The notes under the pieces are model-generated. The model saw only the letters and a list, made by a program, of their open reading frames with translations. It did not search any database and was not told the DNA's origin. Below, piece after piece: positions 2,850 through 33,335 of a stretch of 34,356 nt of DNA; the first letter of the stretch is position 1; each line of letters opens with the position of its first letter. This stretch comes from a virus (lineage: Duplodnaviria > Heunggongvirae > Uroviricota > Caudoviricetes), in IMG/VR virus record IMGVR_UViG_2684622669_000020, one strand, 5' to 3'. Made by a program: the position numbers and the translations under genes.

Positions 2850-3929
2850 TCACCCCTCACGTGGAAAAGGCTGAATATCAATATTTCCCGGGCGCAGCCA
2901 TTCCCACGTTGACGCGTTAATAATGGCTTTTACGTTGTCTGCTGGCGTAATGATTCGCCGGTCACTGACACCGGAAATTAATGAAATCTGGGTTTCCAGT
3001 TGTGAAATAATTAATTCTTGCCCCGGCTCCAGTCGGTTCATAAAATCCGTGATAACGTCAGTTATCTGCGGTTTTATCTGCTCAACGGTCAGGCCGCTGG
3101 TTTTTACCCGGACAACGAAATCAACGGCTTTTTTCGTCGGGGCCAGCACCATCGTGTCCTTCGCCGTCACCGGGCGAACTTCCTCAATATGTGCCAGCAC
3201 GGCATTAATCAGTTCCTGCGAGGGGAGGTCATTGGCTGACGTAATGGCCACATCAACCGTTCCCAGTCCACGACGCAATGGCTCCACATATGCCGAGGTA
3301 ACGCCATCCACTTCCAGCGCCCAGCGTTTGTAATCATATTTGTTACCGCCAGCGGGTGGCCTGCGCAGAATATCCAGATAACGCGCCAGCAGGTCGGCGT
3401 CACTTTCCCTGTCCGTTCCGCCAGTCAGGGATTTAATCGTCACCGTGCTGTTGATGCCTTCCGGCGGACTGACCAGCGTTGCCGTCTGCGTTGTGGATAC
3501 GTTCGTCTGTGCGCCCGTGGTGGTGCTTTTTACCGTCACCTCCGCGCTGCCTTCATCACCGATGGTGCAGTCTGCGGTGGTGGCCACGCTGACACCTTCA
3601 CCGCGAATTTCCGCACCGGCTGGCAGCATCTTACCGGGGGTACCGGTAATCACCACCGGACCGGATGAGGCTGTTGCTTTTTTACGAAAAACATTGCGCG
3701 TGCGGCAGTGCAGCTCCAGATATTCAGGGTCTGCCGTGTCAGGAAACACCTGACGGAGGATCCACCCCTGATGCATATAAAGCCCGTCCGCCACGCCGGA
3801 TACGGCATTGGCACGAATGCGGTAATCGCTGTCAGCGCCGGTGTCGATGGTTTCTCCCGGCAGGGCGTTAGCGATATCACGTAGCTGGCGTTCTGTGTTT
3901 TCAGCAACGCCCGGAACAGGAAACGGCAT
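2850..3929 (-). CDS. Baseplate J-like protein (Mu gp47-like)
   Basis: 359-aa ORF in conserved baseplate position; start overlaps upstream stop. Confidence 0.75.
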   Translation of the reverse strand: MPFPVPGVAENTERQLRDIANALPGETIDTGADSDYRIRANAVSGVADGLYMHQGWILRQVFPDTADPEYLELHCRTRNVFRKKATASSGPVVITGTPGKMLPAGAEIRGEGVSVATTADCTIGDEGSAEVTVKSTTTGAQTNVSTTQTATLVSPPEGINSTVTIKSLTGGTDRESDADLLARYLDILRRPPAGGNKYDYKRWALEVDGVTSAYVEPLRRGLGTVDVAITSANDLPSQELINAVLAHIEEVRPVTAKDTMVLAPTKKAVDFVVRVKTSGLTVEQIKPQITDVITDFMNRLEPGQELIISQLETQISLISGVSDRRIITPADNVKAIINASTWEWLRPGNIDIQPFPREG

Positions 3930-4279
3930 TACATAATCCTCACAGGGTGTTCAAACGTCTGCGGTGTGCCCGCGTTATCCGTGACGGTGATTAGCAGCAA
4001 CAACCAGCCGCGCTGCCCCGTTTTTGTGTCAACGGTAATTGCTGTCGCCCGCCCGTCATCGAGCAGGGGCTGAAGTGCCTGGCTGGCATACTGCGCCGCC
4101 AGCCTGTGGACACGGGAAACGTCTTTTTCCCGCTTCAGTTCGTGCAGGCGTGACCCCAGCGACGCATCCGCCCAGTAACTGCCAAGCGGCGTCGCCAGTC
4201 GCAGATAAACCGCGTTATGAAGTGTATAAATCCGGCGGCGTTCGTAGTCGCCGGTTGCAGGTGAAATCGTCTGGTCCAT
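3929..4279 (-). CDS. Baseplate protein (Mu gp46-like)
   Basis: 116-aa ORF, ATG at 4279-4277 (MDQTIS); conserved position between spike and J-like genes. Confidence 0.6.
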   Translation of the reverse strand: MDQTISPATGDYERRRIYTLHNAVYLRLATPLGSYWADASLGSRLHELKREKDVSRVHRLAAQYASQALQPLLDDGRATAITVDTKTGQRGWLLLLITVTDNAGTPQTFEHPVRIM

Positions 4280-4317
4280 GCCGCCAGTCTGGCAGCATGG
4301 ACAGGTCAGAATCAGGT

Positions 4318-4332
4318 GAGGGTGTTCAGCAC
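4318..4332 (-). promoter_or_regulatory. Copy C of repeated late-promoter-like element
   Basis: GAGGGTGTTCAGCAC matches the core of the elements at 16205-16237 and 23629-23662; lies in the 53-bp gap between the gp45-like stop (4333) and gp46-like start (4279). Confidence 0.35.
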
Positions 4333-4986
4333 TTAATTATGCGGCAGGCCGGATATGCCGTGAGGGGTATCGTGTTTGTGTGTTCCGATTTTAACGCCAT
4401 TAATGGTGACGTCAACGGAGGTAATCACACCACCCACATGGTTGATGTTGCCTTCAAAAGTGGCGGCGTATTCCTTGCCTCCACGGATGGCCATGCCACC
4501 GTTGCCGGTGATTTTACCTTCCACCGTCAGCTTATCGCTGGCCGTCAGTAACGGTGTCGTGAATGCGGCGTTCTCCTCTGCCTCAACCTCATAGCGTTTG
4601 CATTTCACCCGGTAAATGTCACATTCTGTTTCAATAATCCGCCCGCGCTTCAGCACAATTTTCGCGCCTTCGTCGGTATACAGGGCCACCTCGCCGGGTT
4701 TCAGTTCCGTCAGGCGATATGCGCCGTGCTCGGTGGCCACGACGACGGTATGGGAGGTATTACCGTTCAGCGGAACGGCAATACCCATTGAGCCGGGCGG
4801 CGGGGATGTGGTGAGGCCGTAATGCTGAAAATACTCCGCACCGTCCAGCTGTTCGCCTGCCAGCCCGTTCAGCTGAAGCAACTGCACTTTGGTCGAACTG
4901 TCCACCGTACCGGTCACCACCCTGAATGCCTGGCGAACGGCGGCCAGTGCCTGCTGTATGCGCTGATTAACCTTGTCCCACATCAT
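4333..4986 (-). CDS. Baseplate spike / gpV-like protein (Mu gp45-like)
   Basis: 217-aa ORF downstream of the baseplate hub gene; beta-rich sequence typical of spike proteins. Confidence 0.65.
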   Translation of the reverse strand: MMWDKVNQRIQQALAAVRQAFRVVTGTVDSSTKVQLLQLNGLAGEQLDGAEYFQHYGLTTSPPPGSMGIAVPLNGNTSHTVVVATEHGAYRLTELKPGEVALYTDEGAKIVLKRGRIIETECDIYRVKCKRYEVEAEENAAFTTPLLTASDKLTVEGKITGNGGMAIRGGKEYAATFEGNINHVGGVITSVDVTINGVKIGTHKHDTPHGISGLPHN

Positions 4987-6194
4987 TTCTCCCAGACCTT
5001 AACAATGGCAACCTCTTTTTTCTTTTTGCCCCTGCGGTGATGGCGTTTCTTCTCGCGCGGGAAGGCGTCAGGTATCCACACGCCGTCCTCCTTAAAGCGG
5101 AGCCGGGTTGTCTGCCCGTTGCGGCCTCCGCTGAACTCACGCCCCATCAGAAAAAAGATGGCATCGATGCCGTGGGGTTCGCTGACAATCCGCACACGCT
5201 GGCCGGGCTGCCACAGGACACCGTCCGCCGTGCGATGGCCTGCAACCAGTGCGACGATATCCAGCCCCGACAGGCGGGCATCACTCATCATTTTTTTTGC
5301 GCGCCAGTTCACCTGCTCCATGTTACCGGTGTCGCCCTGGGTGATTATCTGCGGGCGGTAATAATCCACAGTGGGGTCGGTGGCCACGGCTTTCATGTTA
5401 TGAATACCTGTCTGGCCATTGTCAGTATTACCGCCGTCCCGCCCGGATAACGTGCGCACGCTGCCGTCCTCGTTCCAGATATCCAGTGGCACCACGGCCA
5501 GTTGTTTTTTGCTGTCTGCGCGGCGGGCGTGGCTTTGAGCCAGTACCGTAAGTTCGGAGAAGCAGCCGTTAATGGACCGGGTATCGTCCAGCTCCATCAC
5601 GTTGTTCCCGGTGCCGTCCAGCTTCATAATCAGCGTGTCCACTGGCGTGGTGGTGTAGTCAGGGCCACCCACAACCAGCGTCCCGTCAGGCTCAAACCAC
5701 GGCCATAAGCCGCGACCGGCGGCAGCTTTAGCCAGTGCATCCCACGCACGCATCCCCGGCTCTATAACAACCTTGTCATTACGTGACACACCGGACGCCT
5801 GAATACGGATGCGCTGTATCCCCAGCGGTCTGACAATCCTGTCGATGACCTCGTCCAGTGTCAGCTGGTTGGCGCTGAACACCGGCGCGGCACAGTCCAC
5901 CAGGATGGCGGCATCATCACGCCCGGACAGAGTCAGCGTGCAGCTCTGACGGGATACACTGCGGCGCACGCTGTCCACGCGACCACTGAGGACCGTCTCG
6001 TCTCCCACCTGCAAACGGACCGGCGCACCCCGGACGATATCCGCCGGGAACACCTTTTCAGGCAGTCCCAGCTGAAGCTGCCACCCGTCGGCGGCTTTCA
6101 GGAAATCGCTGTCAATACGATAACTGCTCCAGTCAGAATGCGACCTTCCGGCAATGACCAGGCTGATTTTGTCGTCGTTATTTTGCATAGGCAT
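4983..6194 (-). CDS. Tail protein P / baseplate hub (Mu gp44-like)
   Basis: 403-aa ORF in conserved position after the DNA circulation gene; start overlaps upstream stop. Confidence 0.7.
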   Translation of the reverse strand: MPMQNNDDKISLVIAGRSHSDWSSYRIDSDFLKAADGWQLQLGLPEKVFPADIVRGAPVRLQVGDETVLSGRVDSVRRSVSRQSCTLTLSGRDDAAILVDCAAPVFSANQLTLDEVIDRIVRPLGIQRIRIQASGVSRNDKVVIEPGMRAWDALAKAAAGRGLWPWFEPDGTLVVGGPDYTTTPVDTLIMKLDGTGNNVMELDDTRSINGCFSELTVLAQSHARRADSKKQLAVVPLDIWNEDGSVRTLSGRDGGNTDNGQTGIHNMKAVATDPTVDYYRPQIITQGDTGNMEQVNWRAKKMMSDARLSGLDIVALVAGHRTADGVLWQPGQRVRIVSEPHGIDAIFFLMGREFSGGRNGQTTRLRFKEDGVWIPDAFPREKKRHHRRGKKKKEVAIVKVWEK

Positions 6195-13400: not shown

Positions 13401-13742
13401 TTACTTCTCCTTTTTGTCCGCTTTTTGTGTTTTCTGTGCGGCGTTCAGCTGTGCGGTCAGTTCACTGACTTTCTGGCGTTCTTCTTCCAGCTGCGCCGTC
13501 AGTTCGCTGACTTTCTGGCGTTCGGCATCCAGCTGTGCGACCAGCTCATCACCCCGGGCCGCGTCGTTCTGGCCGGACGCTTTATCACGCTCCACCACAA
13601 TCAGCATGGGGTCCGCCTTCAGCACCGCCAGCTGTTCCGGGGTGAACGCATCCGCAGGCCATTCCTTCGTGGTTGCGCTGTGTGCCACACCGCAGCGGCG
13701 AAAACCCTCACGGCGGGCGGTAATTTCAATCACCTTTTCCAT
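13401..13742 (-). CDS. Head-region protein with coiled-coil tandem repeat
   Basis: 113-aa ORF containing DAERQKVSELTAQL / EEERQKVSELTAQL, encoded by a 42-bp tandem repeat. Confidence 0.6.
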   Translation of the reverse strand: MEKVIEITARREGFRRCGVAHSATTKEWPADAFTPEQLAVLKADPMLIVVERDKASGQNDAARGDELVAQLDAERQKVSELTAQLEEERQKVSELTAQLNAAQKTQKADKKEK

Positions 13743-15060: not shown

Positions 15061-16185
15061 TTATTTGTCTCCTGCGTAACGGGCGACATCCTCTGGATCA
15101 ACGCCCATCATTGAACAAATGGCGATATCGACATCGACGTCATCGCCGGTTTTAATCTGCGCCGGAGCCGGTGACGGCGTTTTGGGTGGTTTGCCGCCGG
15201 TCTGGGTGCTGCTGAGTGCGGCAAGCGGGGTGGTTTTATCCAGCCAGGTTTTAAAACCGTTAATATCGCGACGAGCGTAATCTTTCGCCCAGTCTTCCAG
15301 CGTCGGAAGCAGTCGCCCGTCAGACAGCGCCGCCTGAATCAGTGCCCCGGCTTCGGCCTCACCGGACTGTTGCGCCAGTACGGCATAACGTCCCTGAAGT
15401 TCTTCATATGCCGTCAGAGGGATATGCTTCGTCGGGTCATAGGCATTTGCTGACAGGCTGGCGATTTGCTCGTCTTTCTGATTCAGCAGGGCCAGCAGGC
15501 CAACAGAAGCCGCTGCCGTTCCTTTGCCACCGGAAATAGCATCAATAATTTTTTGCAGTTCATTTTTAATGTCTTCCGGCGTTGAGGTTGCCGGGAGGTT
15601 CAGCGTCCAGCGCAGACTGGACAGCAAATCGCTTAACAGTTCTTCATCCACTGTTGTGGTCTCCGTTTCAGTTGACAGACTCGCCAGACGGCTGGCCGCA
15701 GCCAGCATGACCGCGTCCATACCGTCGAGCGCCGGGGTATTGGTCAGCGCAGCATGTAACAGCTCCAGCACTTCGCCGCGCTTGTTGTAGGCAAAAACAG
15801 GGGAAATAAATTTGTACTCACCGGCGGCAATCATGGCCGCCGCGTTCTCCGTCCACTCCACACCAGTGGCATACAGGCCCGCACCTTCTCGCCATTCCAC
15901 CTGGCTGAACCAGCCCGCCGCCGGGGCGGGCTTGCCGTTGTTTACGGCGCGCAGCGTCTGATGTTCGTAATCAATGACAAATGGCGTGGTACGGGCTGCC
16001 ACCTGGGCGACAAGCTGCGCGGCCAGTTCAGCGGTCAGCACCCATTTACCGCTTTCGACTTCATCGGTATGTGGGCGACCATCCACCGCGCTGAACTCGC
16101 CCGCCGGAAACAGCTGGATTTCGCTGTGGGTTGCTTTGGTAATTTCGAGGCTTAATGCCGCAATGTTCATTTTCATACGCGGCAT
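15061..16185 (-). CDS. Head maturation protease/scaffold (Mu I-like)
   Basis: Family resemblance to Mu I. The track start at 16230 is GTG and overlaps the promoter-like motif, so start moved to the first ATG (16185); ATGs at 16176 and 16170 are also possible and none has a clear SD. Confidence 0.75.
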   Translation of the reverse strand: MPRMKMNIAALSLEITKATHSEIQLFPAGEFSAVDGRPHTDEVESGKWVLTAELAAQLVAQVAARTTPFVIDYEHQTLRAVNNGKPAPAAGWFSQVEWREGAGLYATGVEWTENAAAMIAAGEYKFISPVFAYNKRGEVLELLHAALTNTPALDGMDAVMLAAASRLASLSTETETTTVDEELLSDLLSSLRWTLNLPATSTPEDIKNELQKIIDAISGGKGTAAASVGLLALLNQKDEQIASLSANAYDPTKHIPLTAYEELQGRYAVLAQQSGEAEAGALIQAALSDGRLLPTLEDWAKDYARRDINGFKTWLDKTTPLAALSSTQTGGKPPKTPSPAPAQIKTGDDVDVDIAICSMMGVDPEDVARYAGDK

Positions 16186-16204
16186 GATGACGGAAGGGGA
16201 ACAC

Positions 16205-16237
16205 GGGGTACTGTTGAGGGTGTTCAGCACCCCGCCA
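16205..16237 (-). promoter_or_regulatory. Copy A of repeated late-promoter-like element (upstream of I)
   Basis: GGGGTACTGTTGAGGGTGTTCAGCACCCCGCCA; nearly identical to 23629-23662 and sharing a 15-bp core with 4318-4332; ends about 20 nt upstream of the first ATG of the I-like gene. Confidence 0.45.
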
Positions 16238-18100: not shown

Positions 18101-19682
18101 TCAGTCGCCCCCAGATATCCGCCACAAAGAATGCCTGTGTCAGCAACTGCCGCAGCGTTTCATCCGGCAGCTCCGGCCATGCTTCCGCCAGTACGTTCAT
18201 GGCCTCGTCTGCATCCCGGCCTTCCTGTATGGCCTGCACCAGTGGGGCCACCAGTTCATTCATCCCCTGCGCGATGGCCTCTGCCGGAAGCTCTGCCCGG
18301 TCGATGGCGCGCTGTGCCGGGTCGTCCTCCCCGTTGTCCTGCTGACTGAGCGCGGCAACATTCAGCCGCTCACGCAGCTGGCTGAGGCCCGCCTGCACAG
18401 GGAGATGCTGTGCCACCGGCACCAGTACCTCTTCGCCGTCTTTCGGGGTGGGGATACCGGTTTTTTTGCGTACCCACGACACAGGGATATCCTTCATCCC
18501 CACATTGTTGACCAGCACGTTGACGGCTTCCGCCACGCCCTTAATGTCGGCTTCCTGCTGCACATCAAACACCAGACGCGGCAGACGGCGTGGCGGGATA
18601 TCCTGCCAGCCGTTCAGGCTGGCCATCATCTGTATCAGGCTGCTGAACATGCCGGACAGCTGGCGAGCATCGGCGGCCAGAATGTCGTGCCGGACCTCGT
18701 TATGCACATTACCCAGCGCATTGGTGGAGGTTTTACCGTCAGCCTGGCTGGTCAGCGTACTGCCCAGAATCACTTTTGAGGTGGTACGCTCCGCCCATTC
18801 CACCATCGACATGAACGCCTCCGGTCCGCCGGAGGCGGCCTCCTTGAATTCAATCTCGTTACCCTGCGGCAGGGCTGCCACCGCTTCATGACCCAGATTG
18901 ACCAGCGCCTCAAGAATGTTGTCCCGGTCCTCGTCACTGGTGCCCTGTGCATAGTAAGCAATGCGCGCCGGAAGGCCGTAAATCTCCAGAAATTCTGCCA
19001 TATCACGCAGCGCAAAGTTTTTGAACAGATACGGCCAGACCAGTACGCGGAACAGGCCGGATGAACCCAGGAACCCCGACCGGGCGTTGTAACGGTGAAC
19101 CAGCCAGCCGAACGGCCACAGCGCGGAGCCGTCTTTACCATCTTCCCCACGATTGCCGTCATCCAGACGGAGTTCGTCATTGTGTTCCGGCAGGGTAATG
19201 AACCAGTTATGCGGGCGCAGCGTCACCGCATCCGGTAACCACGTTTTATCCACGAACGCCCAGCTGATTTCCTGACAACTGAAACCGTAACCGACACTGC
19301 TCATCCCGTTGAGGATGATGTCCTCCATGTCCGGGATACCGTGCAGCCAGTCATCCACGGCGGCGGCCAGCTCCTTTTCTGCCTTCGAGGCATTGCGGGG
19401 CGGCTCCACCGACCAGTCCAGCGTCAGCAATGCTTTTTTGCGCTTTTCCATCTCGGCGAACAGATGGCCATCACGTTCTTCCATATCCGCAAACAGCATC
19501 GCCTGCGCCGGAAGATAACCGCGTTCGGCAGCTTCCAGAATGCGCGGCAGTTTTCTGATGTTCAGGCCACGGGACGGGTGGTCGGGATAAATGCGCAGCC
19601 GTTCCGCCACTCTGACCGACTGCGTGGTTTTGAGAGCCTCACGTTTCAGCGGGCGTCCGTAAATATCAACAAGCTGTGCCAT
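18087..19682 (-). CDS. Portal protein (Mu H / gp29-like)
   Basis: 531-aa ORF, ATG at 19682-19680, 4 nt after the terminase large subunit stop. Confidence 0.8.
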   Translation of the reverse strand: MAQLVDIYGRPLKREALKTTQSVRVAERLRIYPDHPSRGLNIRKLPRILEAAERGYLPAQAMLFADMEERDGHLFAEMEKRKKALLTLDWSVEPPRNASKAEKELAAAVDDWLHGIPDMEDIILNGMSSVGYGFSCQEISWAFVDKTWLPDAVTLRPHNWFITLPEHNDELRLDDGNRGEDGKDGSALWPFGWLVHRYNARSGFLGSSGLFRVLVWPYLFKNFALRDMAEFLEIYGLPARIAYYAQGTSDEDRDNILEALVNLGHEAVAALPQGNEIEFKEAASGGPEAFMSMVEWAERTTSKVILGSTLTSQADGKTSTNALGNVHNEVRHDILAADARQLSGMFSSLIQMMASLNGWQDIPPRRLPRLVFDVQQEADIKGVAEAVNVLVNNVGMKDIPVSWVRKKTGIPTPKDGEEVLVPVAQHLPVQAGLSQLRERLNVAALSQQDNGEDDPAQRAIDRAELPAEAIAQGMNELVAPLVQAIQEGRDADEAMNVLAEAWPELPDETLRQLLTQAFFVADIWGRLNAES

Positions 19683-22105: not shown

Positions 22106-22291
22106 TCAGTTCTGTGATGAACACTGCCGGATGCCGTCAATAATCCGGCAGACCTGCGCCGCCGCGTCAAACAGCTGGCCCGCTCTGTTAATGTCTGTGC
22201 ATCCCACCGGAAGCAACATCACCAGAAACAGGGCCAGAACACAGCGCGCGGCTTTACGTGGCGTTCTGTGTGTCCAGTGCTGACGCGTCAT
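22106..22291 (-). CDS. Small lipoprotein (possible o-spanin-like lysis component)
   Basis: 61 aa with lipobox LLPVGC after a hydrophobic stretch; ATG overlaps the endolysin stop (ATGA). Confidence 0.5.
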   Translation of the reverse strand: MTRQHWTHRTPRKAARCVLALFLVMLLPVGCTDINRAGQLFDAAAQVCRIIDGIRQCSSQN

Positions 22292-22833
22292 ACCGCCACG
22301 CGCTCCTTCAGCCAGCCATAAACAAACGATTCGTTAGCCTCGCGTTTCTCTGCCAGTTCCAGATAGCGGTCACCCTGCGTGCAGTTCAGGGCTGTCAGCA
22401 TCACCCGTTCACCGTCCTGACCGCGATTATTCAGGAAGGCACGCAATGCACTGATGGTACGAGGCCCGATGCGTCCGTCTGCGTCCATATCCGGGTACAG
22501 CCTGCCGCGCAGATTGAACACATTCAGCCAGCGCTGAAGCATTCTGGACGCCACGGTTGGCCCCATATTCACACCGGTATCACACAGCTCTGCGGCAATA
22601 TCAGGGGATAATGCGGCGACCTGGTCAAATCGCGGGCCATACCAGTAATCAGCTTCAAGGATGTCCAGCGCCTGTTCACGGGTTAAATCGCGCATATCGC
22701 CACGGTATCCGTGGGCGCGGGCGACTTTTTCCGTAATGCCCCATTTGGTCGGGCCGCCCTTATCATCCGGGTGATTGACGTAACCGCCTTCTTTGCCCAG
22801 AACTTCATCAAAAATTTCATCTTTTGATTTCAT
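22288..22833 (-). CDS. Endolysin, GH108-type muramidase with peptidoglycan-binding domain
   Basis: N-terminal EGGYVNHPDDKGGPTKWGIT matches the GH108 hallmark as I recall it; no signal peptide or N-terminal TM segment visible. Confidence 0.75.
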   Translation of the reverse strand: MKSKDEIFDEVLGKEGGYVNHPDDKGGPTKWGITEKVARAHGYRGDMRDLTREQALDILEADYWYGPRFDQVAALSPDIAAELCDTGVNMGPTVASRMLQRWLNVFNLRGRLYPDMDADGRIGPRTISALRAFLNNRGQDGERVMLTALNCTQGDRYLELAEKREANESFVYGWLKERVAV

Positions 22834-23113
22834 GTGGATGCCTCAGTAACGAAAGAATTTTTGACAAATTCCCGTGCGCCCACACGATAAGCGCACAGAA
22901 AACCAGATTCAGCGCCACAACCAGCCAGCTGGAGTGCGTGTATGTACCGGACAGCCAGCGGAACGGGATGATGATGTATCCGAGCATCAGCCAGTACGCC
23001 AGCCAGGTAATCAGCGGTTTATGCGCCGCACCGTGGCGGCGATATACAAACAACCCCAGCACAATAGCGAGACACAGCCAGACGTTCACGATACCGGCAA
23101 GGCTACTTTCCAT
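22817..23113 (-). CDS. Membrane protein, holin/antiholin-like
   Basis: 98 aa with three hydrophobic segments; overlaps both neighbours in the lysis cassette. Confidence 0.55.
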   Translation of the reverse strand: MESSLAGIVNVWLCLAIVLGLFVYRRHGAAHKPLITWLAYWLMLGYIIIPFRWLSGTYTHSSWLVVALNLVFCALIVWAHGNLSKILSLLRHPHEIKR

Positions 23114-23495
23114 TTCCCCCCCCTCCGCCGCGCAGTCTGGAAAACAGGCCGAACAGCGATGAAATTTCCTGTTGATAAAGAAAAGTCAGTATCTTGATGG
23201 ATAAAGCAGAGACACCGACCGCACACAATGCATCGAGCGGTTTGTCGTTGTAGTGGGTCAGCCACTGCATCAGTGACGCAGCCACGCCAGCCCCCAGAAC
23301 GCCAACCACAAACGCGACGAGCAGGTGGATGGCCATTCGCCAGACCGGGATTTCTTTCTGCTGCGTGACAACAAAAAGCGCCCCGGCAAACGCGCCCACC
23401 ACGACTCCGAAATCGGTATTGGTGAGAAGACCAAACACACTGGCACCACCGATGGTGACTGCCACAGCTCCGCCGCCTGATAAGGGTTCAGACAT
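23103..23495 (-). CDS. Membrane protein, putative holin
   Basis: Start moved to ATG 23495 (MSEPLSGGG...), which has AGGAGA 6 nt upstream; Gly/Ala-rich hydrophobic segments; first gene after the promoter-like motif. Confidence 0.55.
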   Translation of the reverse strand: MSEPLSGGGAVAVTIGGASVFGLLTNTDFGVVVGAFAGALFVVTQQKEIPVWRMAIHLLVAFVVGVLGAGVAASLMQWLTHYNDKPLDALCAVGVSALSIKILTFLYQQEISSLFGLFSRLRGGGGGNGK

Positions 23496-23628
23496 GAGTT
23501 TCTCCTGTAAATCTGAGCCACTGACGGCCCGTAAATAACACCCTGTCAAAGGCACAGAAGCCTTTTGCAGGGCGCTATCCCTTAAGGTGCCTTGTGGTCT
23601 GAGTGGACAGGGTAAATGGTCTGGTGTG

Positions 23629-23672
23629 GTGGGTACTGCTGGGGGTGTTCAGCACCCCGCCACGGCGGGGTG
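23629..23672 (-). promoter_or_regulatory. Copy B of repeated late-promoter-like element (upstream of lysis cassette) with embedded inverted repeat
   Basis: TGGGTACTGCTGGGGGTGTTCAGCACCCCGCCA (23629-23662), two mismatches from copy A; includes perfect inverted repeat CACCCCGCC-ac-GGCGGGGTG at 23653-23672. Confidence 0.45.
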
Positions 23673-23677
23673 ATAAA

Positions 23678-23956
23678 TCAGAAGCGGGAAAGGGAATCCG
23701 GCGTAATAAGAGGTTTATTGCAAAGCGGAGCAGAGGCGTTAGCCTTTTCCATCGCTGCGCGCATCTCGTTTTCGCTGGCGATGATGTCAGCAATGGCACA
23801 CTGCAACGCTTCTTCCTGAACAACCATATCCGGTTGTTCGGCCATTCGGTTTAGCTGGCTGGCCAGATTTTTCATATAAGCGAAGCGGCGTCCGGCAGCA
23901 TCCCGGGCCTGCTCTGAGTAGGCCGTATACTCGCCAAGTGCCGTATAGTTGGTCAT
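23678..23956 (-). CDS. Hypothetical protein between activator gene and lysis promoter
   Basis: 92-aa ORF with AGGAG 6 nt upstream of ATG 23956; lies downstream of the terminator overlapping the activator gene. Confidence 0.6.
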   Translation of the reverse strand: MTNYTALGEYTAYSEQARDAAGRRFAYMKNLASQLNRMAEQPDMVVQEEALQCAIADIIASENEMRAAMEKANASAPLCNKPLITPDSLSRF

Positions 23957-23980: not shown

Positions 23981-24448
23981 TTAATCAAAAAGCCCCACCT
24001 GGGTGGGGCTTTTCAGCGAAGTCTGTTTTTGTCGTCGGTGTATCAGCTGCCATGCATACCTGTCTGAAATCCCGTAACGGGGACAGAGCAGTGCCAGCGC
24101 CTGCCGGTGTGAGCATCCGTCTTTTACATGCTGCTGTAAATCAGCCATAAAACGGGTGTTACGCAGGGCACGTAACGCATGATCGCAACGGGGAATGTAA
24201 AACGGAGCACCGCCAAGAAAGCGGATCAGTTTGTTGATTTCGTCTTCGGTCAGCACATCATGTAACAGGGCATGGACGCCGCCGGTGCGTTCAGCGTGTG
24301 CGCCGGTTTTACCGCTTAACGTCACGCCACCAAAAGAACGGATTAACCGGGTCAGGGCGGGGAAGCCAATCACGCTAATCAGTTGTTGCACGGAGTCGGG
24401 CAGCAGTGCCTGCGCATCGCGAAGATCTGTTTCACTGAAGGTCTGCAT
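23981..24448 (-). CDS. Mor/C-family transcriptional activator (probable late-gene activator)
   Basis: 155 aa; C-terminal region GGAPFYIPRCDHALRALRNTRF...GISDRYAWQLIHRRQ fits the Mor/C-family DNA-binding region; sits between early genes and the lysis/late block. Confidence 0.75.
   Translation of the reverse strand: MQTFSETDLRDAQALLPDSVQQLISVIGFPALTRLIRSFGGVTLSGKTGAHAERTGGVHALLHDVLTEDEINKLIRFLGGAPFYIPRCDHALRALRNTRFMADLQQHVKDGCSHRQALALLCPRYGISDRYAWQLIHRRQKQTSLKSPTQVGLFD
23992..24013 (-). terminator. Intrinsic terminator overlapping the 3-prime end of the activator gene
   Basis: Minus strand GCCCCACC-ca-GGTGGGGC followed by TTTTTGATTAA; the stem and T-run encode the last residues SPTQVGLFD and the stop. 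Confidence 0.6.
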
Positions 24449-24490
24449 GATGGCGTCTCCGGTAGTAACTTACTGTTATTATAGCCATAC
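24449..24490 (-). promoter_or_regulatory. Candidate promoter for the activator gene (consensus -10, poor -35)
   Basis: Minus-strand TATAAT at 24483-24478, about 29 nt upstream of ATG 24448, with GGAG between; no good TTGACA at the -35 position. Confidence 0.4.
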
Positions 24491-24510
24491 ATGATCGCCT
24501 GTACAGACCA

Positions 24511-24536
24511 CAAAAAAGCCCCTGCAAGGCAGAGGC
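24511..24536 (-). terminator. Intrinsic terminator after the GemA-like gene
   Basis: Minus strand GCCTCTGC-ctt-GCAGGGGC (one G-U pair) followed by TTTTTTG, a few nt after the stop at 24544-24546. Confidence 0.55.
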
Positions 24537-24543
24537 TGATTCT

Positions 24544-24957
24544 TTATTGTTTACGTGCTGCTCTGGCTCGTTTTCTGGCGTCTTTTGTCAGCGCCACCAT
24601 CACCCCGAACAGTTGATCATCTGTCAGCCATTCGATCACATGTTGCTTATACATGTGAGATGCCAGTCCTTCCGCATACGCCCAGGAACGACCGGCATCA
24701 GCCAGCAACGCTTCAATTTTGGATAATACTGATTTTCTGCTCATTGCAACACGGGGGCGGCGACCTTGACCGGCGGGTGCCTTGCGCGGAAATCCCTGTT
24801 CGTGCATGTATTCCCGGATGATGCGCAGTTCATCGAGGTTGCAGCGTGTGGTGCTGGTTTTACCGGTCAGGCGGGCCAGCGTCTGGCGATAAAGGACATC
24901 ATCCCACCCCAGATACGCCTGACCGGTTTTAATGGCTCTGATCATCTTTTTCAGCAT
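24544..24957 (-). CDS. gemA: GemA-like early regulatory protein (Mu gp16 family)
   Basis: Start moved to ATG 24957 (GAGGAT upstream); MLKKMIRAIKTGQAYLGWDDVLYRQTLARLTGKTSTTRCNLDELRIIREYMHEQGF matches the GemA-family pattern as I recall it. Confidence 0.65.
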   Translation of the reverse strand: MLKKMIRAIKTGQAYLGWDDVLYRQTLARLTGKTSTTRCNLDELRIIREYMHEQGFPRKAPAGQGRRPRVAMSRKSVLSKIEALLADAGRSWAYAEGLASHMYKQHVIEWLTDDQLFGVMVALTKDARKRARAARKQ

Positions 24958-25243
24958 GTTTGTTATCCTCAAAACGCACGGTAAAACGTGAAACGCCAAT
25001 CCCTGACAGGAACGCAGCGGCACGGTCAAGAGACAGCCACGTCTTGTAATCGCCACGGCGTTCCTGTAGAAAATAGGACACCCCGGCGCGACGATTCACA
25101 GCAAAGAGGTGATACACACCACCGAACCGCTGCACGACGAACTCATCCACGCCACCGCTTTCAGCCTGTTGCCTGAAAGCTGCCATTCCGATTTGTTCAA
25201 TCTTCATAATGACCAAAACATCACTTTTGGCAGACCAAAACAC
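24929..25243 (-). CDS. Hypothetical protein
   Basis: 104-aa ORF; track start is GTG, first ATG is 25207, neither has a clear SD. Confidence 0.4.
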   Translation of the reverse strand: MFWSAKSDVLVIMKIEQIGMAAFRQQAESGGVDEFVVQRFGGVYHLFAVNRRAGVSYFLQERRGDYKTWLSLDRAAAFLSGIGVSRFTVRFEDNKHAEKDDQSH

Positions 25244-26914: not shown

Positions 26915-27625
26915 TTACACCCTCCCCAGTGCCAGCGGTCTGTTGCTCTGACCATTAACTCCCTGATGCAGCCTGGCGTTTTTTCCGGCGATAAAACCGG
27001 CAGTAGCGGCAAACTCTGCACCCCGGCACGCTTTAGCCGTACGCATATCCCCGTCGCGCAGTCCTTTAGTGCTGTGCAGATTCTTTCTGTAAAGCTCAAG
27101 GCGGCTTTTTTCTTCCGGGGAGACGTCATACACCGCAATGACATCACGGGCACCAAAGACCCAGCCTTCGCAGAACTGGTCGCCACGGGCCACCCGCGTG
27201 GACGGGCCGCAACGTTTGCAGTGTTTATCCTGATATTTCTTGCGCTCTGCCATCATCTGACGGGAAAGCACATCAAACGCGTAAGCCGCGATTTCCGGGC
27301 GGCTGTCAGAGCCATAAAAACGCACGTGACGTTTGAGTGAACCAGAAGCCCGGTACTCACCGGAGATGTAACACTCGACGCCGAAGGCTTTACAGACCAG
27401 GTCACACAGGATGTGCATATAACGCGGCGGCGTACTGGCATCACTCGGCGCACCCGCGCTGGCAGCTTCCTGAATGTCGAACAATTCAGCGTCGTTTTCG
27501 CTGATGCCATGCTGGCGCATATAAGCCTGGGCTTTTGCAATAGCGTTAGCGGCTTCTTCCGGGCTTGATGTTCCTCTGGCAAGGTGTAACAGCTTTTTAA
27601 TTTTGGCGATGTATTTATCTTTCAT
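26915..27625 (-). CDS. DUF2786-like early protein
   Basis: 236 aa; N-terminus MKDKYIAKIKKLLHLARGTSSPEEAANAIAKAQAYMRQHGI matches the DUF2786-type N-terminal signature as I recall it; Cys-rich C-terminus. Confidence 0.6.
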   Translation of the reverse strand: MKDKYIAKIKKLLHLARGTSSPEEAANAIAKAQAYMRQHGISENDAELFDIQEAASAGAPSDASTPPRYMHILCDLVCKAFGVECYISGEYRASGSLKRHVRFYGSDSRPEIAAYAFDVLSRQMMAERKKYQDKHCKRCGPSTRVARGDQFCEGWVFGARDVIAVYDVSPEEKSRLELYRKNLHSTKGLRDGDMRTAKACRGAEFAATAGFIAGKNARLHQGVNGQSNRPLALGRV

Positions 27626-30109: not shown

Positions 30110-30349
30110 TTATTGCCATACGACGGTGCAGCCGTCGATACAGGACGTTTTAACCACGCGGCGCAGGCCGCTGAATCTCTGGATGATTTCCGTTACCGGC
30201 CATACAGGACCCCCCACGGGCGGGCAGGCATAAACCACAGGTAAACGGTGATGCTGTCCCGTTACACGGCCACCGGTGGTGTGGATGGCCACACGGGCAC
30301 GGGAACGGACGGCGTTAATGGTCTGCTTGTCCATCGTCTTGTTCTCCAT
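30110..30349 (-). CDS. Hypothetical small protein downstream of B
   Basis: 79-aa ORF; ATG overlaps the B stop (ATGA). Confidence 0.45.
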   Translation of the reverse strand: MENKTMDKQTINAVRSRARVAIHTTGGRVTGQHHRLPVVYACPPVGGPVWPVTEIIQRFSGLRRVVKTSCIDGCTVVWQ

Positions 30350-31242
30350 CAGTGAATTAACATTTCTGCGAAATCATCAATAGCCTGCACACTGACCGGC
30401 GCATCGCTGATATCACAAATCCGGTAGACCCCACGCACAAGTTTAAACAGGCGTCGGGCATTGCCCCGTGAGCGTGTGTAAAGTGCTTCACAGATTTCAG
30501 GCGCTGCTGCTTCCGGCATCAGTTCGGCGGCTATCTGGATGAAATCCTTCTGCGCCAGCGTATCGCCGAGGTCCAGCGAAAGAGCCACCCGACTGTATAG
30601 CTGCGCGAACTCCCCACGATTGCCTTTAAGATTAATCAACAGGCGCGGCATACCAGCCAGGGCAACACCGACGCCCGCCTTGTCATGCAGACGACGCAGA
30701 ACTTCCAGCGCACGATAGGGGAGCAGTTCGGCTTCATCCACCATCAGCAGGCGACCGGAGTCACGCAATTCGTGTACGCAGGCATTAATCAGTTCGTGAA
30801 TATTGCCGCGAACCTTTACCCCCAACTGGCGGCACAGTTCCTCCAGCAGTGTCCTGGCTGTATAGCCCGGGTCAGCCTCAATCAGTATTGCGTCCCGGTT
30901 TCTGGCGGCGTATTCGCGCAAAATCATTGTTTTGCCAAGACCTGCCGCGCCATACAACACGCTAATTTCACACTCCAGATGAGCATAGGCCAGCGCCTCC
31001 AGCCCTTTGGCGGCCATACCTGTAGTCACAAAACTTGCTTTTACACGCCGGTTGTTTTCTTTTTCCCGTTCACGGCTGACAAAGGCAGAAATTCGCTCTT
31101 CGATATCAGTGATATCGCCCTGATATTTACCCTGCAAATACTGGTTGATAACGGCGCTGCTACGACCAATAGCACGGGCAACGTGGGTCTGCGTATAGCC
31201 GCGACGGGCCATTACGTCATTTAATTGCGTAATTAAACTCAT
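30349..31242 (-). CDS. B: Transposition ATPase B (MuB-like)
   Basis: 297 aa; N-terminal HTH then Walker A GAAGLGKT and D-E motif MVDEAE; directly downstream of the transposase. Confidence 0.85.
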   Translation of the reverse strand: MSLITQLNDVMARRGYTQTHVARAIGRSSAVINQYLQGKYQGDITDIEERISAFVSREREKENNRRVKASFVTTGMAAKGLEALAYAHLECEISVLYGAAGLGKTMILREYAARNRDAILIEADPGYTARTLLEELCRQLGVKVRGNIHELINACVHELRDSGRLLMVDEAELLPYRALEVLRRLHDKAGVGVALAGMPRLLINLKGNRGEFAQLYSRVALSLDLGDTLAQKDFIQIAAELMPEAAAPEICEALYTRSRGNARRLFKLVRGVYRICDISDAPVSVQAIDDFAEMLIH

Positions 31243-31259
31243 ATTAAATACCTTTTAAA

Positions 31260-33335
31260 TTAACGGTTGTTTGTGCCGTCTTTCTTTAAATTGCGGTCAC
31301 GCTCGGATGCAAAGAAATAAAGTTCTTCTTTTTTCTTTTCCTCCTTACGCTCCAGACCAAATCCAAAATTAAAGTCAGGTCTCTGCGTAATAGCCGGGGT
31401 AAGCTCGCGTTTAGCCTCTTCGATTTTCTGCGTGGCCCGTGCAATGCGGCCTCTGGCGCGTTTCTCCTGCTGCTGTTCGATAACAGCTTTCGGGAACGCA
31501 TCAACCTTATTACCGTTCCAGATGGCATCGCAGATATAAGAACCGTCCATCCGCCTGACAATCACGCTGTTTGCGTCGTGAATGTCGTAACAAACCCTGA
31601 CTTCATTTCCGTGCTCTGCTGCCAGTTCTGTGGAGAAATAGATGTTTCTGAATAACACCACTTCACCGCGTCGCACCGTGCAGATGCTTTCCGGTCGGAA
31701 CATTTCATGCAGTTCTTCCGGCGACAGCATGTCGATTTCAGCCTTTTGCTCTTTTATCAGTTTCCGGCGATACGCTGCCGGGCTGTAATGTTCGCCATCC
31801 TCTTTGCGGGGAAGGCTGCTGTGTGGCCGGTTGTTATACCGTTTCACCTCCAGCTCTATTGCGGCCATCAGTTGCTCAAAAGTGGGGACTTCTCCCATCG
31901 CTTTAACCTGCCGCTTTGTCAGCTCTTTCCCTTTGTGGGTGGCCTTAATGGCTGACTGTGTGATGCGTTGCTGCATCATCACCGTTTCCTTGTCTGCATT
32001 TTTTGAGCAGTACGTCTGGAAACTCAGGGCCACATCTTTGGGTATTCCTTTGTTTGCCCGTTCTATTACCCCGCGCCCCTGCGGGTTACCAGGTATCCCC
32101 GTGTGATGCTCCACACCCAGCCGGGGCAGAATCCCGGTAATATCGGCATCAAGCACCCGGTTTTTTTCACCGCCCCCGTTATCGGAGTAATAAATCAGCG
32201 GTATTCCGTGTTGTGACATGCCATGACGCAATGCATCAGCAACGGCTATCACGTTCTCCGACAGGGACAGCGACCAGCCCACAATAAAGCGTTGCCCCGC
32301 ATCCATAACCAGCGTCACTTCTGGCCGGAATGTATTCCCGGTGGCAGGGTTGAATGCCATCAGTTTCATACAGTGACCATCCCCGACCCATACCGCATTA
32401 ACCGGTAATGTGCTCCAGTCGCGCCGCACAAAGGGATTGAGCGAACGCCAGGCTGAGCCGGTGGAGCGGAAACGCTCCTTAACAATCACCGGGACGTTGC
32501 TTAACACCCGTCTTACTGCGTGAACTGAAGGCAGTGCTGCCAGCATTCCCGCATCGTTCGCGTGTTTTTCATGCCACCAGGCTGAAAACTCGCGATACGC
32601 ATATTCAACGGTCGGGCGCTTCCATGAGCGATAGAACATAAAGAAATCGCTCAACCACCAGACCTGCTCCCACGGTGTTCCCTTATGATGACCGGGAGCC
32701 AGTAACGCCAGTAACTGATTGGCATCACCGCGCGCCATCAGCCAGGCGGAATACCATTCCTGTAAACTCCCTGTACTGACGCCAGTTCGCTTACCCTGTC
32801 GGGCATTGGCGGTATTACCGGCCACAATAACGCGCTCGGGCAAAGCCCCCTGGCGGATACCATCAACGATGTGTTTTATCGCTGCTGTCCTGGACATTCC
32901 TGCGTATTCACGCAGTTTATGCACTTCGGTAGCCAGCAATATCCGCGCATCAGCGATGGCCTTTTGCTTGTCGGTCAGTGCCTGAACTTCGCGTAATGCC
33001 AGTTCCGGGCATTTGACCATCACTTCCAGTTCATCGCGAATGGTGACGTTCTTAACTGCCTTCTGCTCAACCACGGCGGGCAGTTGCGCATCTTCCAGAA
33101 CCTGATGGGTCAGGCGTTGACGTAAAACCTTCTGAACATCTTTAGGTAAACTGGATATATGGTACTCATATATTTTCCCCTGAACTCCAGACTTCCTTCT
33201 TCTTGTCCAGTTCGCTCGTTTAGCTTTTTGAGTGATCCCCTGTACAGTTTTCGGTAGCCCTTGAAGCCCTGTTAGTTCATTCAACGTAAACCATTCAGGT
33301 TCGAACTTGACTTCATAGTCGTTGTTCTTATTCAT
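31260..33335 (-). CDS. A: DDE transposase (MuA-like)
   Basis: 691 aa; N-terminal domain resembles the repressor N-terminus (LxGLxGLPxTxQGIxQKAKRxxW); central integrase-like catalytic region; followed by B. Confidence 0.9.
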   Translation of the reverse strand: MNKNNDYEVKFEPEWFTLNELTGLQGLPKTVQGITQKAKRANWTRRRKSGVQGKIYEYHISSLPKDVQKVLRQRLTHQVLEDAQLPAVVEQKAVKNVTIRDELEVMVKCPELALREVQALTDKQKAIADARILLATEVHKLREYAGMSRTAAIKHIVDGIRQGALPERVIVAGNTANARQGKRTGVSTGSLQEWYSAWLMARGDANQLLALLAPGHHKGTPWEQVWWLSDFFMFYRSWKRPTVEYAYREFSAWWHEKHANDAGMLAALPSVHAVRRVLSNVPVIVKERFRSTGSAWRSLNPFVRRDWSTLPVNAVWVGDGHCMKLMAFNPATGNTFRPEVTLVMDAGQRFIVGWSLSLSENVIAVADALRHGMSQHGIPLIYYSDNGGGEKNRVLDADITGILPRLGVEHHTGIPGNPQGRGVIERANKGIPKDVALSFQTYCSKNADKETVMMQQRITQSAIKATHKGKELTKRQVKAMGEVPTFEQLMAAIELEVKRYNNRPHSSLPRKEDGEHYSPAAYRRKLIKEQKAEIDMLSPEELHEMFRPESICTVRRGEVVLFRNIYFSTELAAEHGNEVRVCYDIHDANSVIVRRMDGSYICDAIWNGNKVDAFPKAVIEQQQEKRARGRIARATQKIEEAKRELTPAITQRPDFNFGFGLERKEEKKKEELYFFASERDRNLKKDGTNNR

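Follow-up and report, generated by a model that had tools for sequence, protein, structure and literature searches.

The 53-bp gap between the gp45-like and gp46-like baseplate genes of this prophage (4280-4332, genes on the minus strand) is probably a functional late promoter that depends on an activator; from the sequence comparisons presented here we give this reading a probability of roughly 0.78. The original prediction placed a late promoter at this site, internal to the tail/baseplate block, and it was supported by conservation, by co-variation of three sites and by a fixed geometry between a repeated core and a -10 hexamer. The gap promoter, which we call P46, would serve the distal baseplate and tail-fibre genes, i.e. 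gp46, gp47, gp48, the fibre gene and the fibre assembly gene. Use of P46 by host sigma-70 RNA polymerase would require an activator of the Mor/C family encoded in the prophage, and a dimer of this activator, bound to a dyad centred at -43.5, would recruit the polymerase in the manner of Mu C and Mor. Transcription would start at the A of the gp46 ATG, six bases past the hexamer, and the leaderless gp46 message would be translated without a Shine-Dalgarno sequence. In RNA reading through from upstream, a palindrome would fold and bury the gp46 ATG.

The gp45-gp46 gap, its repeated core and the candidate activator

The window, that is the whole stretch of 34,356 nucleotides that was analysed, is a Mu-like prophage in which every gene lies on the minus strand: transposase genes A and B (30349-33335), GemA and the Mor-family gene (23981-25056), holin and endolysin (22288-23555), the head genes with protease gene I (15061-16176) among them, and the tail genes, which end with fibre assembly (715-1290). 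At 13446-13529 (plus-strand coordinates), in coding sequence that separates the major head gene from the genes of the head-tail connector, two 42-nt copies stand in tandem and are 86% identical. The genes on the two sides of the gap had been named gp45-like and gp46-like, and Pfam bore this out for both, the baseplate spike gene at 4333-4986 in the list of open reading frames (Phage_Mu_Gp45, E 1e-23) and the baseplate wedge gene at 3929-4279 (GP46, E 8e-19). The start of the latter is called at the same position by PGAP in a relative, and its 3' end is overlapped by gp47 (2850-3929). NCBIfam returned no match for gp46, for the activator or for a 92-aa open reading frame downstream of the activator gene.

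The TAA stop of the gp45-like gene (4335-4333) directly adjoins a repeated 15-mer, GAGGGTGTTCAGCAC in plus-strand letters, which we located at 4318-4332, inside the gap as predicted. Its strand had been missed: the genes are read in the other direction, where the motif is the reverse complement GTGCTGAACACCCTC. Nor did the earlier account include the dyad, the -10 hexamer, the palindrome or the geometry of a leaderless start, all described below. An exact copy of the 15-mer at 16216-16230 and a copy with one mismatch at 23641-23655 make the one in the baseplate cluster the third, as had been claimed. By our own arithmetic an exact 15-mer is expected to recur by chance in 34 kb about 3e-5 times, and the recurrence of the core is far above chance. 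The equivalence of the three copies holds for the 16 nt that they have exactly in common (repeat family D7) and breaks down for a longer block of 32 nt (repeat family D8), which is common to the gene I and lysis copies and lacking in the gp46 copy. Among the sequences compared, the 16-nt core of the gp46 copy is the part that holds everything conserved at the level of the family.

The two other copies lie in predicted sister promoters, both on the minus strand. The one for protease gene I (16184-16230) comprises the core at 16216-16230, a dyad at 16214-16227 and the hexamer CATCAT at 16184-16189, followed by 7 nt and an ATG (16176-16174). The one for the lysis cassette (23602-23655) has its core at 23641-23655 and the hexamer TACCCT at 23609-23614; its predicted start lies near 23602, and a leader of about 107 nt with the Shine-Dalgarno AGGAG leads to the ATG at 23495. 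The combination of core and hexamer occurs three times only in the window, and an nAnnnT hexamer stood at one fixed offset from the core in all three copies and in none of nine near-matches. These nine were the minus-strand members of 16 one-mismatch matches to CTGAANNCCNYCA, discarded for want of a hexamer at the right distance; the remaining seven lie on the plus strand, in an orientation opposite to the genes. A near-match at 24004-24016 is a portion of a terminator hairpin, and a match with three mismatches at 5872-5886 was no better than the chance level.

In gene direction the core contains an imperfect dyad, CTGAA-CACC-CTCAC (CTGAACACCCTCAC; 4316-4329, minus strand), the predicted site of a Mor/C-family activator, for which the consensus in the family is CTGAA-N4-TTCAG. 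Taking the A of the gp46 ATG as +1, the dyad would span -50 to -37 with its centre at -43.5, figures that are conditional on this predicted start. Its left half is weaker in the gp46 copy, with AAGTG where the other two copies have GGGTG. A different dyad, GGGGTG-N5-CACCCC, fits the gene I and lysis copies; we set it aside since the relatives keep CTGAA-N4-TTCAG, shifted by a few bases.

The predicted -10 hexamer is CAGACT (4286-4291, minus strand; -12 to -7), whose first base comes 38 nt after that of the dyad. It matches TATAAT at three positions only. A consensus scan requiring both hexamers found no site in the gap, and by inspection there is no -35 match upstream of CAGACT, where the region fits TTGACA at no more than 3/6 positions. 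Two other candidates for the -10 element were rejected: CATAAT, in the gap just before the motif, since its distance is not constant in the other copies, and CATGCT, from the conserved CCATGC, since CCATGC is the outer 5' arm of the palindrome and pairs with GCATGG. The hexamer ends 6 nt before the gp46 ATG, with C at -1, and the window's gap contains no GGAG, GAGG or AGGA before the ATG. This distance, the pyrimidine at -1, the missing Shine-Dalgarno and the dyad centre at -43.5 together led us to predict the transcription start at the A of the gp46 ATG (4279, minus strand), with a leaderless mRNA as the consequence, because the ATG then sits at the expected +1 and no Shine-Dalgarno precedes it.

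The candidate activator of the three promoters is the Mor/C-family gene at 23981-24448 (minus strand; Pfam Mor, PF08765, E 1.1e-6, 29.1 bits against a cutoff of 24.9). It stands directly after gemA, and its product, of 155 aa, has in common with Mu C the linker FLGGxxFYIP. No second member of the family was found among the ten open reading frames tested, and from this we infer that a single activator would serve the lysis, head and tail promoters directly, a two-step cascade where Mu has three steps. Its predicted recognition helix varies between the dyad classes of the relatives, which is suggestive only, as the difference is confounded by phylogeny. The lysis copy of the core is located after this gene, the only one of its family in the window. 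Between the two lies the 92-aa open reading frame (23678-23956; no family match). The Mor-family gene shares its 3' end with a terminator-like hairpin, AAAAGCCCCACC-CAGGTGGGGCTTTTT (23985-24016, minus strand), after which come a good Shine-Dalgarno and the ATG (23956) with which this reading frame begins. A second hairpin, CCCCGCC-GTG-GCGGGG (23655-23680, minus strand), comes after its stop; the 3' arm overlaps the bases immediately upstream of the lysis promoter core, and no run of T follows. A terminator has been predicted at the equivalent place in Mu, before Plys.

Conservation of the gap in related prophages

Of 5426 complete E. coli genomes, 59 carried the prophage, at 93-97% identity. 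A search at the DNA level found almost nothing among isolated phages and none close to the prophage; relatives were therefore retrieved by a protein-anchored search. For gp46 homologues the yield was 54 loci in other species plus 80 viral contigs, and for gene I homologues 79 viral contigs. Comparison of the intergenic sequence across relatives had been suggested as a check on the promoter, and the core turned out to be conserved. Among 97 distinct sequences upstream of gp46, 82 had a gap of at least 40 nt after the preceding gene, and in 13 the preceding gene overlapped or abutted, as in Mu. Gap and core were kept in relatives from Enterobacterales, Burkholderiales, Neisseria and Pasteurellaceae, at gp46 identities of 48-99%. 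The gap-bearing set had a dyad directly 3' of the gp45 stop, most often CTGAA-N4-TTCAG, and the first base of CTGA[AC] stood 49-52 nt before the ATG in the enterobacterial, Burkholderiales and Neisseria lineages.

An nAnnnT hexamer ended 6-8 nt before the gp46 ATG in 76 of the 82 distinct gaps, against a background of 4.9% per offset, and 6-7 nt before it in 64; these counts, like the others given here, overstate the number of independent observations because related sequences share descent. The hexamer took the forms CAGACT, CACACT, GACAAT, GAGAAT, TAAATT, CATAGT, GAAAAT and others. Most of the 82 gaps lacked a Shine-Dalgarno, and a GC-rich inverted repeat around the hexamer was conserved in this set. 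Five of the six exceptions to the hexamer were Snodgrassella loci with a normal GGAG. In the relatives with overlapping genes the hexamer was found in 0/13 and a GGAG-type Shine-Dalgarno in 7/13.

Gene I gave much the same picture. Among 71 distinct sequences upstream of it, with protein identities as low as 38%, 67 had the hexamer ending 6-7 nt from the ATG and 3 had a match resembling a Shine-Dalgarno. An unbiased search for 5+5 inverted repeats returned a mode at -43.5 from the ATG in the gp46 gaps; upstream of gene I the same search had its mode at -43.5 as well (22/55), with most of the remainder at -44.5 or -45.5. In the gp46 and gene I sequences listed, inspection found a pyrimidine at -1 before the A of the ATG.

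The three sites also changed together. In eight divergent contig pairs the core in the gap matched the gene I and lysis cores of the same genome and differed from that of the window. The co-varying core is CTGAACTCCCTCAG at all three sites in one pair (L078/L155), CGCTGAACCCnCTCAGCCGCTACCCC in another (L079/L159) and CTGCTGAACCCCCTCAAC in a third (L121/L163). Haemophilus phage SuMu has GTGGAAGTGCTTCCTCA in the gap and GTGGAAGTTGTTCCTCG before gene I. The lysis promoters of eight genomes had an unchanged distance from nAnnnT to CTGAA, with leaders of 45-107 nt and a good Shine-Dalgarno. Since these copies keep the spacing despite their long leaders, the hexamer is tied to the core and not to the hairpin or to the start codon, as would be expected of a promoter.

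In 21 E. coli-type relatives nucleotide diversity was 0.029 in the gap, 0.018 in the core and 0.012 in the palindrome; at third codon positions it reached 0.084 in gp46 and 0.188 in gp45. By this comparison the gap varies less than synonymous sites do and is under purifying selection. As far as the sequences retrieved can tell, the same design is one that recurs in hundreds of related prophages and not in Mu itself.

Several observations on the relatives stand apart from this. In close relatives gp45 was three to five times more diverse than gp46 (up to 0.15 vs 0.03-0.05), an indication that a mosaic junction may lie in the promoter gap or close to it. Two contigs of the Photorhabdus/Xenorhabdus type (L163, ~1982; L176, ~1514) carry two Mor/C paralogues, as against the one activator gene of the window, and a fourth copy of the core with its hexamer (ACTGAACCCCTTCAACC ... 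AATACT), about 600 bp upstream of the lysis promoter, where the window has three copies. In the Pseudomonas branch (L011, L019, L021, L026, L029, L112-L135) the upstream motif is another one, CTGAAA at -41 to -43, and the hexamer, set within a GCGAGG/CCTCGC hairpin, is 7-8 nt away from the ATG: the same theme in a shifted geometry. In E. coli RM9088 an element of the IS66 family (L001, 13111-15726) lies just upstream of the tape-measure gene; together with the missing left part, this insertion marks that copy of the prophage as defective.

The palindrome, the predicted start of transcription and alternative readings

The hexamer of P46 is enclosed by a palindrome, GTCCATGCTGCC-AGACT-GGCGGCATGGAC, an inverted repeat of 12-13 bp at 4274-4302 (minus strand). 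Most of the hexamer forms its loop, and the 3' arm is made up of the discriminator, the ATG and codon 2 (GAC). Folded as RNA it reached -27.5 kcal/mol with a z score of -4.5. RNAalifold on a MAFFT alignment gave no structure owing to gap columns, and covariation was assessed by explicit counting of pairs in 37-39 distinct sequences. Overall 76% were paired, compared with 68% after shuffling, and for all twelve pairs the covariation score was 0.258 (shuffled 0.153). For the inner six, 76.5% of the cells were paired (shuffled 62.9%) and the score was 0.383 (shuffled 0.196). Pairing and covariation were above all 500 shuffles and all slid controls, whose covariation did not exceed 0.12. The mismatches, 37 of the GU type and 23 of the AC type, did not discriminate between a role as RNA and one as DNA. 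Many gene I promoters of other lineages carry the palindrome, and the gene I promoter of the window is without it.

A transcript that starts at the ATG excludes the 5' arm, so the hairpin could form only in read-through RNA; if the palindrome does act as RNA, the region must also be read through from upstream. One DNA element would then be both promoter and RNA silencer of the read-through start codon, tying translation to its own promoter. Our preferred guess is that the palindrome makes translation of gp46, and of gene I elsewhere, depend on the gene's own promoter in this way; it may act at the DNA level instead. Its role is the least certain step of the explanation.

The hairpin also speaks for reading the gap as a post-transcriptional element with no promoter in it. 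Here gp46 would be made from a long polycistronic late RNA, the AUG-burying hairpin would be a translational operator of the Com/mom kind, which some factor opens or circumvents, and the core a binding site for RNA or protein. In Mu, a stem-loop in the late mom transcript sequesters the start codon and Com regulates its translation, a precedent to which the inclusion of the AUG in the 12-13 bp stem, the low z score, the covariation beyond shuffled and slid controls and the G-U pairs opposite the AUG in seven sequences can be added. We nevertheless regard this reading as unlikely. There is no Shine-Dalgarno for such an operator to expose; the lysis copies keep the spacing of core and hexamer with neither hairpin nor ATG, and so does the gene I copy of the window, which has no hairpin; the invariant A and T are the key positions of a -10 element and do not co-vary as base pairs would; and only by coincidence would the dyad centre fall at exactly -43.5. 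A search of Rfam found no family match. The likeness to Com/mom has further limits, since gp46 lacks a Shine-Dalgarno, no com homologue was seen near it and its stem includes the -10 hexamer.

If P46 is a real promoter, its transcript might still carry a leader, either because transcription starts a few bases off the A or because gp46 is translated mainly from read-through RNA. The spacing of 7-8 nt in some lineages and at the gene I copy of the window, as well as the distance of about 11 nt in SuMu gene I, would fit such an arrangement, and leaderless translation is usually inefficient in E. coli, which counts against our explanation. Against such a leader stand the hexamers that end 6-7 nt before the ATG, in the large majority of both the gp46 and the gene I sequences, the pyrimidine at -1 before the A and the missing Shine-Dalgarno. 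We find this alternative improbable; for the gp46 transcript of P46 to be truly leaderless, as we predict, we see odds somewhat better than even.

That the gap is a module boundary or recombination linker between tail modules, or a decayed and functionless copy of the gene I promoter, is hardly credible: the contrast in diversity between gp45 and gp46 does suggest mosaic exchange and the left half-site is weaker at gp46, but a linker has no need of a hexamer at a fixed distance from core and ATG, nor would it change in step with the other two sites from genus to genus, and synonymous sites are less conserved than core and palindrome.

Relation to Mu and other systems, and the start of gene I

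Two of the three copies in the window, those for lysis and gene I, occupy the places of Plys and PI in Mu, whose GenBank record has C-dependent late promoters before lys, before I, inside N and before com/mom. The suggestion that Mu places its tail promoter upstream of P, so that the placement in the window might differ, proved right on both counts. Mu PP (27287-27353) is located within N, some 335 bp before P, and P46 lies two genes further downstream; gp45 and gp46 of Mu overlap and leave no gap. Neither in nor near N or P of the window did we find a core with a hexamer, and the window has no equivalent of Pmom.

In architecture the likeness to Mu is closer than in sequence. PMC2582627 describes binding of Mu C to a 16-bp imperfect dyad that is centred at -43.5 and overlaps the -35 region, and C-activated promoters with -10 hexamers and no typical -35. 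PMC4390567 likewise describes binding of a Mor dimer to two 5-bp inverted repeats in a 16-bp element of Mu Pm centred at -43.5, where the dyad of the window would also be centred if transcription starts at the ATG, and a recent structural preprint has the same arrangement (doi 10.1101/2025.05.02.651988). Mu late promoters and those predicted in the window have in common the regulator family, an imperfect dyad, a -10 hexamer and the lack of a typical -35. The Mu late core itself, CCATAACCCC, followed by about 20 nt and then the hexamer, is unrelated in sequence to CTGAA-N4-TTCAG.

Further differences concern the cascade and the transcripts. The single Mor/C-family gene of the window has the position of Mor, after gemA, in Mu. 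There, Pm drives a middle operon that encodes C, whereas the activator of the window appears to act directly on the late promoters. Mu late transcripts have leaders and annotated ribosome-binding sites; gp46 and gene I of the window have their ATG at the predicted start. A palindrome enclosing the -10 hexamer is a feature of the window, unlike the late promoters of Mu.

Leaderless mRNAs that start at the A of the AUG and have no Shine-Dalgarno are familiar from lambda cI, transcribed from PRM, and from tetR of Tn1721. Both are regulatory genes. Those predicted here encode late structural proteins (protease I, gp46), depend on an activated promoter and belong to a design that seems to have been kept across a large clade of phages, unlike lambda cI and tetR. 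Our literature search found no mapped or leaderless late starts for Mu-like phages, BcepMu, SuMu, DMS3, JBD30 or D3112, and no promoter paper for BcepMu or SuMu. Three features seem undescribed in the literature searched, with an earlier mention being possible: a site between gp45 and gp46, a +1 that coincides with the ATG at two late operons, and the palindrome.

More tentatively, and at a little short of even odds, the design may extend to a large beta- and gamma-proteobacterial clade of Mu-like phages that includes DMS3: the gene I operon would be leaderless throughout, the gp46 operon as well in the myovirus branch, and the palindrome would silence the start codon in read-through RNA. If this were true, the three-stage late scheme of Mu with its leader-containing transcripts would not be the common design among its relatives, most of which seem to use one activator of the Mor/C type and promoters that start at the start codon. 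It would also offer a defined case for how leaderless translation serves structural genes and for what a palindrome around a -10 element does. With a rule of dyad, N24 and hexamer, late promoters and activator specificity could be read directly from prophage sequence.

These considerations bear on the annotation of gene I. For gene I of the window, the longest open reading frame begins within the motif, with a GTG (16230) at the first base of the promoter core, and the hexamer itself contains an in-frame ATG (16185). What is conserved as a start is the ATG at 16176, which follows CATCAT after 7 nt, and with this start gene I of the window also looks leaderless. A leaderless gene I would fit a low output of full-length protease beside the scaffold protein that is started internally. 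Gene callers that seek a Shine-Dalgarno can misplace such starts. In Pseudomonas phage DMS3 (L217, NC_008717; locus 330-520) the gene I module reads TTGAAccccTTCAt ... CACCAT tggcggc ATG, with this ATG at record position 19037. The GenBank start of gene I is 19163, 126 nt downstream of the homologous ATG, and was probably misplaced owing to the missing Shine-Dalgarno.
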